Assembly (NCBI RefSeq): GCF_006345805.1
Contig: NC_043003.1
Span: forward strand, 117,118,001-117,182,000
Direction of reading: 5' to 3'
Length of the DNA: 64,000 bases
DNA from: Octopus sinensis
Lineage: Eukaryota
The notes beneath the pieces are model-generated. The model searched no databases. It worked only from the letters and a program-made list of their open reading frames with translations, and was not told the DNA's origin. Positions 7,515 to 23,837 of this stretch are shown here, in pieces. Every line of letters starts with the position of its first letter. Position 1 is the stretch's first letter. The translations under genes were made by a program, and so were the position numbers.

Positions 7515-8270
7515 AAATATGACATATAATGCAAATATCATATCATATATACTAATATGACATATCATAATGCAAATATATCATATATGCAAATATGACT
7601 TGTCATAATGCAAATATCATATCATATATACAAATATGACATATAATGCAAATATCATATCATATATACTAATATGATATATCATAATGCAAATATATCA
7701 TATATACGAATATGACATATCATAATGCAAATATTACATCATATATACAAATATGACATCATAATGCAAATATCATATATACAAATATGCCACATCATAA
7801 TGCAAATATCATATTATATATACAAATATGACATATCATAATGCAAATATCATATATACAAATATGCCACATCATAATGCAAATATCATATCATATATAC
7901 AAATATGACATCATAATGCAAATATCATATATACAAATATGACATATCATAATGCAAATATCATATATACAAATATGACATATCATAATGCAAATATCAT
8001 ATATACAAATATGACACATCATTATGCAAATATCATATCATATATACAAATATGACATCATAATGCAAATATCATATATACAAATATGACACTATGACTT
8101 ATCATAAGGCAAATATCATATCATATATACAAATATGACATATCCTAATGCAAATATATCATATATACGAATATAACACATCATAATGCAAATATTACAT
8201 CTTTTATACAAATATGACAGCATAATGCAAATATCATATCATATATACAGATATGAGATATCCTTATACG
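7515..8270. repeat. AT-rich minisatellite, ~36-41 bp unit, about 19 copies
   Basis: The unit ATATGACATATCATAATGCAAATATCATATCATATATACAA is repeated with small indels. Confidence 0.93.
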
Positions 8271-14179: not shown

Positions 14180-15436
14180 CAGAGGTTGGACAAAACAATG
14201 GAAACACCTATCATCATAGCATCATAATTTTGAAATATCTATTAAACCACCAAAAGGTTGTTCATTATTTGTTTAGTATTTGTGTTGCTTAATACGTTTT
14301 GCTAAAATTTCTCTTTCTTTTCAGATATTATCAGAAAAAGGTAATTAAAATTCATTAAAATGACTGATCTATCGGACTTTCAGAGAGGTCAAATTTTTGG
14401 TGATCGTATGCCAGGCGCTAGCGTAACAAAACAGTCGAAGTGTTTGGTGTATCAAGAAGTACTCTCTCGAAAGTAATGACAGTCTTTGAGAAAGAGGGAA
14501 AAACCTCCTCGTCGAAAGAAAACTCCAGAAGAAAACTAAAAATTTCAGAATAGTGATCGTCGGAGTCTTACGTGAATTGTTAGAATGGATCACAAAATTA
14601 AAGCACCCAAAATTACTGCAAAGCCTAATGACCACCTCGAGAACGCAGTTTCCACAAAAACTGTTCTCCGGGAGCTGCACAAAGCCGAATCTCACGGAAG
14701 GGCTGTAATCAGAAAACCGCTACTTTCATAAACAAACGTTTCAAAGCGTTTAGAGTAGAGTAAAAACCTACAGAATTGGTCCCTTGAGCAGTGGAAGAAT
14801 GTTATTTTCTCGGACGAGTCATCCTTTACCTTATTTCCGACCACCGGCTGAGTATACGTGTGGAGACAGCCAAAAGACCCAGACTGCCATATTCCAACTA
14901 TTAAACATGGAGGAGGATCTGTGATGGTCTGCGGGGTGCTACATCTTGGACATCCGCCGGTCCAATGATTTCTCTTCATGGCAGAATTAATAGTCACGAC
15001 TATTTAAGCATTTTATCAGATCAAATTCATCCTATGATTGCGGAACTGTTTCCGGAGGGAAACGCAATCTTTCAGGATGATAATGGACCAATTCACACAG
15101 CTAAAGTTGTTACTGAATGGCATAAGGAACATTCTAATGAAGTTGAACATCTTATCTGGCCACCACAGTCCCCAGATCTCAATATTATAGAATATGTAAG
15201 GTGCATTTTAGAAAAACATGTAAGGAGTCGATATCCTCCACCATCATCACCACAAGAACTGGAGACTCTTTTAGCTGAAGAATGGACAAATATTCCTTTG
15301 GAAACAATTTAAACTTTGTACGAGATCATACCTCGTAGAATTCAAGTTGTAATTACTGCCAAAGGCGGTCCTACCCCATATTTAGATAAATTTGTTTGGA
15401 ATATTAAGGTGTTTCCATTATTTTGTCCAACCCCCA
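14180..15436 (+). mobile_element. Full-length decayed Tc1-like transposon
   Basis: TIRs CAGAGGTTGGACAAAACAATGGAAACACC / GGTGTTTCCATTATTTTGTCCAACCCCCA, with TA flanks. Confidence 0.93.
14360..15385 (+). pseudogene. Tc1 (DD34E) transposase pseudogene
   Basis: MTDLSDFQRGQI, WKNVIFSDESSF, IFQDDNGPIHTAK, WPPQSPDLNIIE and AKGGPTPY, with frameshifts and stops. Confidence 0.92.
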
Positions 15437-15684
15437 TATATATAATTGTGTTTCTTAGCAAGTCTTTGTGGATGTCTAACAAGATCCTTCCAATTAAGAA
15501 GCTGATCAAAGACAACTTCAATGAATATAATTTACCCGCAGTCTTACCGTTCTAAGTCTCTGTGACGACGGCTTTGACCGACTACTACCTCCACTGCATA
15601 TTTCTTACTCCATGGTTTCTCTGGACACTCATGATCCGAACGCGTTATCATACACTTTATATATATATACATATAACTATATAG

Positions 15685-15737
<53 letters not shown>

Positions 15738-15985
15738 ATATATATATATATTATATAATTAATCAATATAGGGTGGCAAAAAAAAAATTTTGTAGAATTC
15801 TTTTTGCCACCAGCGGCCTAGTGGGAAAAAATTAAATAGTCATAGACCATTTTTAAGTTCAACATCAACAATCAAGGAAGGCCATAATAGGCCATTCACC
15901 CACTATAAATAACAGCCAAAGCTCAACCGCAAATAAAGATTAATTCCGTAAACAGGAGAAAATTTAAAAAACATTTACCCTGTAA

Positions 15986-16084
15986 TTCTTGTACGATGCA
16001 CCGTTTCATCTGTGTTAATGGTAAACTAACCTGATTAAATTAAATCAAGCCATCTTCCATAGGCCCTCAGATTCTTCAGCAGAA
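15986..16084 (-). ncRNA. Type I hammerhead ribozyme motif
   Basis: Minus strand: TTCTG-CTGAAGA-ATCTG...CAGAT-GAAA-CGGTGCATCG-TA-CAAGAA. The core is complete, helix II closes with 5 bp, and helix III is near-palindromic. Confidence 0.75.
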
Positions 16085-16518
16085 ATAGCCAAGTCGGAAC
16101 AGATATTTTCACGAGCCAAGGTAATTTGACCTAAAATTTTCAGGGTAAATGTTTTTTAAATTTTCTCTGTTTACGGAATTAATCTTATTGCGGTTGAAGC
16201 TTTGGCTGTTATTTCTAGTGGTGAATGGCCTATTATGGCCGTTCCTTGATTGTTGATGTTGAACTTAAAAATGGTCTATGACTATTTAATTTTTTTCCCA
16301 CTAGGCCGCTGGTGGCAAAAAGAATTCTACAAAATTTTTTTTGCCACCCTATATGATTAATTATGAATTTTCTGGTTAATTCCGTAATGGAATCGACGGC
16401 TTATATTTATTTGCTGCCGATAAATTTGGCGCGAGTGCGACGATTTGAAAATTTTAGGTCAGATATTACTTGGCAGGGTCTGAAATGCCTCGTGAAAATA
16501 TCTGTTCCGACTTGGCTA

Positions 16519-16621
16519 TTTTGCTGAAGAATCTGAGGGCCTATGGAAGATTGGCTTGATTTAATTTACTCCGGTTAGTTTACCATTAAACAGCAGGATG
16601 AAACGGTGCATCGTACAAGAA
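16519..16621 (+). ncRNA. Type I hammerhead ribozyme motif (second copy)
   Basis: TTTTG-CTGAAGA-ATC...GAT-GAAA-CGGTGCATCG-TA-CAAGA. Confidence 0.7.
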
Positions 16622-16799
16622 ATTACAGGGTACATGTTTTGTTAAATTTTCTCTGTTTACGGAATTAATCTTTATTTGCGGTTGAAGCTTTGGCTGTTAT
16701 TTCTAGTGGGTGAATGGCCTATTATGGCCGTTCCTTGATTGGATATATCATATATATATTATATATATATATAATATAGATATCTATATTATATATATA

Positions 16800-17008
16800 C
16801 TTTATTTAAAGCAACAGAAAATTCAAAAACCTGTTACTCTGAGTTTCCCATTTCCGTTCGTCGGACAGTTTTTGCTAGACGAACGGCAAGGGAACTCAGA
16901 GTAAAGGTTTTGTTGAATTTTTGCTCCTTAAATAAAGCATATTACTCTACCACTGGTATTTGAGTACTCTTTTTCCACCTTGTTTCACATTTATGTGTTT
17001 ACTCCGAT
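16800..17008. mobile_element. Short inverted-repeat element with a degenerate hammerhead motif, in (TA)n
   Basis: 16801-16868 is inverted relative to ~16877-16936. The minus strand reads CTGT-CCGACGA-ACGGAAATGG-GAAA-CTCAGAG-TA-ACAG. Confidence 0.55.
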
Positions 17009-21585: not shown

Positions 21586-21685
21586 NNNNNNNNNNNNNNN
21601 NNNNNNNNNNNNNNNNNNNNNNNNNNNNNNNNNNNNNNNNNNNNNNNNNNNNNNNNNNNNNNNNNNNNNNNNNNNNNNNNNNNNN
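21586..21685. other. Assembly gap (100 N)
   Basis: Run of N. Confidence 1.
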
Positions 21686-21869
21686 CATGTTATTTATATG
21701 TTAATATTGCTGTTCGAAACCATTGTATGAATGTATTAAAATTCCTTTCAAATTTTAACATCTTCTCTTCTCCATCTTTTACAGTTCGTTGAGTTTCTAT
21801 GGGATACCATTCCACAAATTCTCATCACACACCATATATATATATAACTTAACTTAACTATGTGTATGT

Positions 21870-22916: not shown

Positions 22917-22946
<30 letters not shown>

Positions 22947-22952
<6 letters not shown>

Positions 22953-23777
22953 CAATATAGGGTAGCAAAAAAATTCAAGAAAAAAGTCAAGAAAAATTTT
23001 CTGCAACCAGCGGTCAAGTGAGAAAATAGAAATAGTCACAGACTATATAATATATTCAACAAAATATTAAGGAAAGACCCTTACGGGTCGTTCAACTCAC
23101 TTGAAAAGAGCAGCCAAAACTCAAACCGCAAAAATAGTAGTAATTCTGAAAGCTAAAGGAGAAATAAAAACATTATCCTTTTATTTCTCCTTTAGCTTTC
23201 AGAATTACTACTATTTTTGCGGTTTGAGTTTTGGCTGCTCTTTTCAAGTGAGTTGAAAGACCTGTAAGGGTCTTTCCTTAATATTTTGTTGAATATATTA
23301 TATAGTCTGTGACTATTTCTATTTTCTCACTTGACCGCTGGTTGCAGAAAATTTTTCTTGAATTTTTTCTTGAATTTTTTGCTACCCTATATTGATAAAT
23401 TAATAATTTTTGACTAATTCTGAAATTGTATCATCAGTTTATATTTGCTGCTGAGTAGTTGGCGCGGTTACGTTGGATTTCGAAAAATTAGGATATATAT
23501 ACTACTCGGGCTTCAGTGGTATCGCCTCGTGTGTATATGTTCGCGTTTTCTTTGGGGGACTTTGCTGATGAAACAACCAATCGTAAACGGATTTAATTTA
23601 ATTCAATTAAGTTCGATTGCGTAAAAATGTTGAAACCTTGCAGGGTACAAGTTGAAAAGGATAAATGTTTTTATTTCTCCTTTAGCTTTCAGAATTACTA
23701 CTATTTTTGCGGTTTGAGTTTTGGCTGCTCTTTTCAAGTGAGTTGAACGACCTGTAAGGGTCTTTCCATAATATTTG

Positions 23778-23778
<1 letters not shown>
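22947..23778. mobile_element. Candidate retrozyme B: non-coding ~490 bp unit, inverted arm plus ~1.2 tandem units, in (TA)n
   Basis: 22947-23170 is a near-perfect inverted copy of 23180-23400. TTATTTCTCCTTTAGC recurs at 23181 and 23671. It shows patchy homology to element A. Confidence 0.78.
23558..23653 (+). ncRNA. Type I hammerhead ribozyme motif
   Basis: GACTTTG-CTGATGA-AACA...TGTT-GAAA-CCTTGCAGGG-TA-CAAGTT. The core is canonical, helix II is AACA/TGTT, helix III is near-palindromic, and the triplet is GUA. Confidence 0.78.

Positions 23779-23837
<59 letters not shown>

Follow-up and report, generated by a model that had tools for sequence, protein, structure and literature searches.

Outer ends are programmed and the inversion point is mostly scattered in a non-autonomous retrozyme family of Octopus sinensis

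Insertions of Penelope-like elements have been described as partial tandems with an inverted, 5′-truncated copy and, often at one end, a tail of 30 to 40 bp, and the origin of such tandem and inverted insertions is named there as an open question (PMC8557442, in the sections drawn on here). In the corresponding biochemistry, the tail lies between two internal reverse transcriptase (RT) start sites, each of the two strands is cut and then extended, and a protein dimer is predicted; ribozyme cleavage was dispensable for insertion in vitro (PMC11167929, in part). Dimer-dependent hammerheads have been described as a means of cutting multimers while sparing circles (PMC4209133, in part). Metazoan non-LTR retrozymes are short, low-GC tandem repeats with one type I hammerhead per unit, and their mobilisation by Penelope-like elements via circular RNA has been proposed (PMC7229834; bioRxiv 10.64898/2026.07.22.740005; both in part). 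The enzyme that moves animal retrozymes has so far been argued from co-occurrence and pLTR likeness. The case in the relevant sections of bioRxiv 10.64898/2026.07.22.740005 is likewise built from co-occurrence and pLTR similarity, not from insertion anatomy, and the word 'inverted' is absent from PMC7229834.

The present study describes a non-autonomous retrozyme family whose outer ends are programmed and whose inversion point mostly is not. The window, i.e., the whole stretch of 64,000 nucleotides analysed from O. sinensis (GCF_006345805.1, contig NC_043003.1, 117,118,001 to 117,182,000), holds two insertions, A (15755-16741) and B (22947-23778). Each consists of an inverted arm and a forward arm flanked by (TA)n. 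They belong to related families with units of ~487 nt (period 485 nt in A, 490 nt in B); the forward arms span ~1.2 copies each and are 67% identical between A and B. Unit coordinates are numbered from the first base 3′ of the predicted cut. The features are as follows.

15658..15757, unstranded: (TA)n target, left flank of A
15755..16141, minus: A inverted arm, from unit ~316 (inner end, past a complete hammerhead) to site T at unit 234 (outer, 3′ end)
15985..16087, minus: A hammerhead copy in the inverted arm; core CTGAAGA 16079-16073, helix II ATCTG/CAGAT, helix I ATTTCTG/CAAGAAT
16135..16741, plus: A forward arm; 1.24 units of period 485, from unit 5-11 to its outer end at site H (unit 122-127)
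16190..16348, plus: A predicted multibranch RNA domain; long-range helices P1 and P2 around site H, hairpin P4 just 5′ of site T, z -6.45
16516..16623, plus: A type I hammerhead; CTGAAGA 16524, long helix II, GAAAC 16600, palindromic helix III CGGTGCATCG, predicted cut after GTA 16615
16743..16799, unstranded: (TA)n target, right flank of A
22918..22952, unstranded: (TA)n target, left flank of B
22947..23182, minus: B inverted arm, from unit ~8 (inner end) to site T at unit 243 (outer end)
23179..23778, plus: B forward arm; ~1.23 units, period 490, start at unit 22, outer end at site H
23219..23386, plus: B predicted multibranch domain, as in A; compensatory changes relative to A in P2, z -5.95
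23557..23652, plus: B type I hammerhead; CTGATGA 23565, GAAAC 23632, palindromic helix III CCTTGCAGGG, predicted cut after GTA 23647
23779..23836, unstranded: (TA)n target, right flank of B

The motif ATCAATATAGGGT lies at 15762 in A and 22951 in B, and the inverted arms start 4-7 nt before it, at 15755 and 22947. Hairpins stand at 16716 (A) and 23749 (B), with the 3′ ends next to them at ~16741 and ~23778. An earlier, sequence-only reading of this DNA had described these motifs, hairpins and coordinates, all of which were found. It had also held that the breakpoints of A and B coincide with each other and with the predicted cleavage site. This is true of the forward arms, which start at 16135-16141 (unit 5-11) in A and at 23179 (unit 22) in B, and of both arms of B (unit 8 and 22), the only one of the two elements in which both end near the cut. 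The inverted arm of A, however, crosses the ribozyme and carries the whole hammerhead, with a ~14-nt deletion, up to unit ~316.

Both families are dispersed in the 2.7-Gb genome (1183 first-look candidates for A and 1876 for B). The short frames of A and B, compared by eye, have no coding content in common, and a tblastn search with three in-genome Penelope-like proteins gave matches in flanking elements and none in the A/B units. The 487-nt unit has no RT or GIY-YIG ORF, and A/B are therefore not classed as autonomous Penelope-like elements. With the metazoan non-LTR retrozymes they share, besides the traits named above, a palindromic helix III suited to dimers; they also appear to resemble them in lacking an LTR and, with the A/B frames judged by eye, a conserved ORF. 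They differ from these retrozymes, as described in the sections cited, in the ~487-nt unit, in a helix II domain of ~70 nt, in mostly two-armed insertions and in two fixed ends in (TA)n.

Each unit carries one type I hammerhead with CTGAAGA or CTGATGA, a long helix II, GAAAC, a palindromic helix III and GTA. Across 77 loci, pair 1.1-2.1 is C-G in 46 and U-A in 31 with no mismatch, and one helix II pair is G-C in 68 and A-U in 9 without exception; each compensatory pair is probably one evolutionary event. The helix III palindromes differ between A and B, and both form 10-bp dimers. Judging from the sequence patterns, the ribozyme fold appears to be kept by selection, and cleavage is predicted. 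An Rfam scan of the window returned no family at gathering score, hammerheads included, and the hammerhead regions alone are weakly above shuffles (z -2.17 and -0.96). The region around H and T takes the same predicted multibranch fold in A and B (z -6.45 and -5.95). Its helix P2 is CTAGTGGG/CCCACTAG in 70 and CAAGTGAG/CTCACTTG in 27 of the 100 loci matched, which amounts to two compensatory changes. Locus tallies for P3 and helix III were left unused, being confounded by hairpin self-complementarity and with family B mostly missed. Public contigs of two runs, guessed to be RNA, cover the unit in 27 and 26 of 29 bins; being contigs, they make no ends or circles visible. Another hammerhead family, with a very long helix II and a sequence unrelated to A/B, was seen at L247:3015-3130 and in L170.

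The family-A sample comprised 99 loci. Thirty-nine were best matches, the window included, drawn from 40 scored of 1183 candidates; 40 were found by an exact H end and 20 by a T end without a listed H partner, drawn from the first 100 entries in lists of 470 and 537 pattern matches, respectively. The arms stop at either H (unit ~122-129) or T (~231-238), and their transition into (TA)n is through AT microhomology. Eighty-two loci are two-armed with one H and one T end (75 by script, six with a short-stub second arm, and L113 on inspection), none is H-H or T-T, 16 are single-armed and one (L119) is unclear. Thus, the Penelope-type insertion signature, a partial tandem with an adjacent inverted 5′-truncated copy, was found in 82/99 A loci. 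A second H occurred in 0/32 H-anchored pairs (P = 5e-10 under free choice) and a second T in 0/20 T-anchored pairs (P = 2e-6 under free choice). Genome-wide, exact junctions of A with (TA)n numbered 470 at H and 537 at T, an end ratio near 1:1, against 0 and 0 for reversed-pattern controls. H and T are ~107 nt apart, and this extra stretch, or tail, is present at one end only in all 82 pairs. Target-site duplications are unreadable within (TA)n.

Family B agrees with A, but is older and less clean. Among 40 loci, 17 were H-T by script, four had one end elsewhere, one was apparently H-H and 18 were single-armed. One of those scored by script as having an end elsewhere (L100) ends at T by eye, and the apparent H-H locus (L101) is interrupted by a 240-nt microsatellite block and probably records two events. 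The fixed sites H and T, their strict one-H-one-T pairing and the (TA)n target are direct observations. The outer junctions are accordingly programmed, as the sequence-only reading had proposed. Its further idea, that cDNA synthesis departs from a fixed signal, needs amendment: synthesis likely starts at fixed sites, but the signals are two, one per arm, and not a single one.

The inner ends, where the arms meet, behave differently: when the breakpoints of genomic copies are mapped on the unit, the outer ends are fixed, whereas the inner ends are spread, with a minor pile-up at unit 5-9. The end-anchored set comprised 65 A loci, 64 of them with countable arms, and 114 arm starts; dropped before the count were L122, whose array runs beyond the stretch, the short piece of L118 and arms with their outer end at neither site. 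In this set the inner ends are dispersed over the whole unit. Ten of the 114 arms (7/64 loci) start at unit 1-26, where 6.9 are expected (P = 0.16), and 6/114 at unit 1-10, where 2.6 are expected (P = 0.047). At least one cut site is crossed by 83/116 arms, and 32 arms cross two or more. In the best-match set, 14/61 arms lie at unit 5-9 and none at 461-485; the query of that set began at unit 11, which inflates the unit 5-9 class without explaining its sharpness. Near-symmetric fold-backs number 19 at the cut site (16 loci) genome-wide versus 7 at an AAGCTT control palindrome, and the AATT palindrome at unit 5-8 may contribute to those at the cut site. A stop hot spot at unit 58-67 (11 arms, 3.1 expected) is left unclaimed, as it was picked from about 475 windows.

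These counts bear on the mechanism first suggested for this locus, in which synthesis of a single cDNA begins at a fixed 3′ signal and proceeds as far as the 5′ end left by the ribozyme, where the inversion arises. The forward-arm starts of A and B (unit 5-11 and 22), the pile-up at unit 5-9, the excess of cut-site fold-backs over the control and a locus whose arms span 6-127 and 6-234 (L144), the expectation from a linear monomer, all agree with it. However, the near-cut class in the end-anchored set hardly exceeds expectation, most arms, including A's own inverted arm, pass through the cut site, and the 19 fold-backs stand against at least ~500 insertions. Moreover, a fold-back cannot yield two distinct fixed outer ends with either arm longer. 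Among 71 clean pairs, the further-reaching arm is the H arm in 35, the T arm in 25 and neither in 11; since either arm may be the longer, neither is a fold-back copy of the other. The junctions of these pairs have 1-12 nt of overlap in 33 and 1-20 nt of filler in 26. A second primed cDNA is thus a better reading of the inverted arm than a fold-back of the first cDNA. As a general rule the single-cDNA model is contradicted, and we regard it as quite improbable; it survives as a minor pathway at roughly 5-10% of loci, with run-off at the cleaved 5′ end likely real but minor. The inversion point is mostly scattered and is not programmed by the ribozyme. The near-cut start shared by A and B is largely a coincidence, since such starts form a minority class (7/64 end-anchored loci). 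One locus (L041:2051-3868) has three forward pieces, each beginning from unit 6 after a short fold-back, and two of them end at T; the pattern is one of recurrent run-off at the cut followed by a new start at T.

Palindromic arrangements of this kind might also arise as long-read or assembly chimeras. Differences between units amount to 3-5% and are mostly small indels, as is typical for noisy long reads, and the junction of A in the window (16117-16128) is unbridged by contigs of four runs, which give no cover there and are neutral either way. Chimeras would be symmetric, however, without two distinct fixed end sites. In addition, the left and right flanks are unrelated in 48/50 two-armed loci, the other two sharing only repeats at 67-78%, and contigs of runs X5 and X7, from one study, hold a different fold-back junction of this family. 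An artefactual origin therefore appears extremely improbable.

The two arms of an insertion share a haplotype. In an analysis of 441 unit pieces from 98 loci, substitutions amounted to 0.5-0.7% within an insertion versus 2.5% between loci, and the arms were concordant at 845/851 polymorphic-site calls, where 562 are expected; 21 haplotypes occur among 55 fully typed loci. Of 123 alleles private to one locus and lying at doubly covered sites, 15 were present in both arms, and at L065 one such allele is carried by 7/7 units across both arms. The other 108 were confined to one arm, and 104 of these to one unit only, as expected from subsequent mutation or error. Assembly polishing, gene conversion or the activity of one dominant source at a time could exaggerate the similarity of the arms. 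Six alleles are common to one unit per arm but not to all units, two of the six in register; such partly shared alleles are not predicted by a single-monomer circle and lean to a linear multimer. Homogeneous arrays extend to nine or more units and indicate a bottleneck at the monomer stage, likely in the form of a circle; a homogeneous linear multimer also fits them.

Arms of one haplotype that end at two different sites are probably the work of a borrowed Penelope-like RT/GIY-YIG enzyme, which on a single RNA extends each of the two cut DNA ends, one from H and the other from T. A competing possibility is that both strands prime at T and the endonuclease trims one arm to H at resolution, or that the enzyme holds two RNAs of one source asymmetrically. 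Priming and trimming look alike in genomic ends, and the tail has been ascribed to endonuclease-mediated resolution (PMC8557442, in the sections cited). Nevertheless, H ends meet (TA)n directly via AT microhomology just as T ends do, and both tail boundaries are RT start sites in vitro (PMC11167929, in part). Two RNAs from one source locus would likewise match in haplotype, and the partly shared alleles fit a linear multimer; two independent RNAs should have given more than 6/851 discordant calls in view of the 21 haplotypes among 55 loci, unless sources are active one at a time. Taken together, trimming or paired RNAs seem unlikely, though less so than the single cDNA. Against double priming by such an enzyme itself stands the ~107-nt H-T spacing of A, which exceeds the 30-40 nt tail of described elements.

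The best reading of A/B would thus be a non-LTR retrozyme that a Penelope-like enzyme mobilises by double priming at two sites, likely on circular RNA. Tandem transcripts would self-cleave via dimeric hammerheads and likely circularise. A protein, possibly a dimer, would bind the folded domain around H and T. Both (TA)n strands would then be cut, and their 3′ ends would anneal to short AU-rich stretches, one of them at H and the other at T. Each cDNA would be of variable length, on a circle up to nine or more units, and the two cDNA 3′ ends would be joined by microhomology or short filler. A linear cleaved template would give the minor class that stops at unit 5-9.

In L1 twin priming, cDNA on one RNA is primed by each of the two target strands, and the cDNAs join by microhomology to leave an inversion; the internal position of the second primer varies, and there is no overlap between the arms. 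In A/B, by contrast, the two starts are fixed at a distance of ~107 nt and the arms are copies of one and the same sequence, and therefore strand displacement or a circle is needed. The strict H/T asymmetry is unexplained by the published biochemistry, since the start sites of the anole enzyme did not differ between the strands in vitro (PMC11167929, in part). A bolder proposition, on which we are evenly balanced, is that Penelope-like elements in general undergo obligate asymmetric double priming, with a protein dimer on one folded RNA domain assigning one fixed start to each double-strand break end in (TA)n, and hammerhead-made circles serving as rolling templates. If this were true, a single phenomenon would account for both the tail and the inverted copy, and two-ended insertion would have a portable signal in the ~160-nt domain. 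Our literature search found no paper stating a one-H-one-T rule or twin priming in Penelope-like elements or retrozymes, subscription papers and supplements being outside its scope. A short, abundant family with strict one-H-one-T ends and same-haplotype arms joins the question of Penelope-like insertion with that of the retrozyme enzyme, and the pairing rule gives a precise in vitro prediction.

Penelope-like ORFs are numerous in this genome (candidate lists of 5029 and 8010). They include a young, autonomous Neptune-type family with an RT, a CxxxxCxxC linker and, at the C terminus, a GIY-YIG domain, the clade label being taken from motifs given in PMC8557442 (in part). At L198:1674-5374, L202 and L205 this family has a period of 4730 nt and two overlapping frames, one of 479 aa without a confident Pfam match, then one of 781 aa with RT and GIY-YIG; its hammerhead-like core reads TTGATAA in place of CTGANGA. 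It is not homologous to A or B. The family ends in (TA)n at two sites ~40 nt apart, 3′ of the variant hammerhead-like motif. Among 20 T-anchored loci, ten have an outward-facing opposite end, which is H in 10/10, nine have none and one has two inward T ends; L213 provides an eleventh H-T pair. The two inward-facing T ends lie at L231:4952-5072 over a 12-nt TA stretch.

A/B therefore have the same H-T pairing as the Neptune family of their own genome. With Neptune-type elements as described (PMC8557442; PMC11167929; PMC4209133; in the parts cited) they also share the partial tandem, the inverted 5′-truncated copy, the one-end tail, a hammerhead 5′ of two fixed ends and a microsatellite target. 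A/B differ from them in having no RT or endonuclease, in whole-unit repeats, in a tail of ~107 versus 30-40 nt and in a full canonical hammerhead core.

No autonomous partner of A/B was found in 80 Penelope-like protein loci (30 GIY-YIG, 20 long-ORF and 30 Hydra-like endonuclease), a small part of the 5029 and 8010 candidates. The matches to A/B in those loci were weak AT-rich stretches or other small palindromic repeats only, and none was pLTR homology to an autonomous family. Pieces of Penelope-like ORFs adjoin A or B copies at L102, L141, L159 and L160, probably because both inserted into the same TA tracts; at its 3′ end the L160 element is unlike A and B.

The window contains further repeats. 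A minisatellite with a 41-nt repeat in ~19 copies occupies 7515-8262, and a 100-N assembly gap lies between A and B (21587-21686). To the left of A (~14180-15435) is a decayed copy with inverted ends, which we take, by eye, to be of a Tc1/mariner-like transposase. Directly right of A, at 16799-17008, stands a third small element, unrelated to A and B and of the same two-armed plan in (TA)n, with a short end, a long end ~72 nt beyond and a fold-back junction. Its copies in L186 and L197 have one short and one long end in 2/2 cases, and the latter carries a minimal hammerhead-like motif over the junction region.
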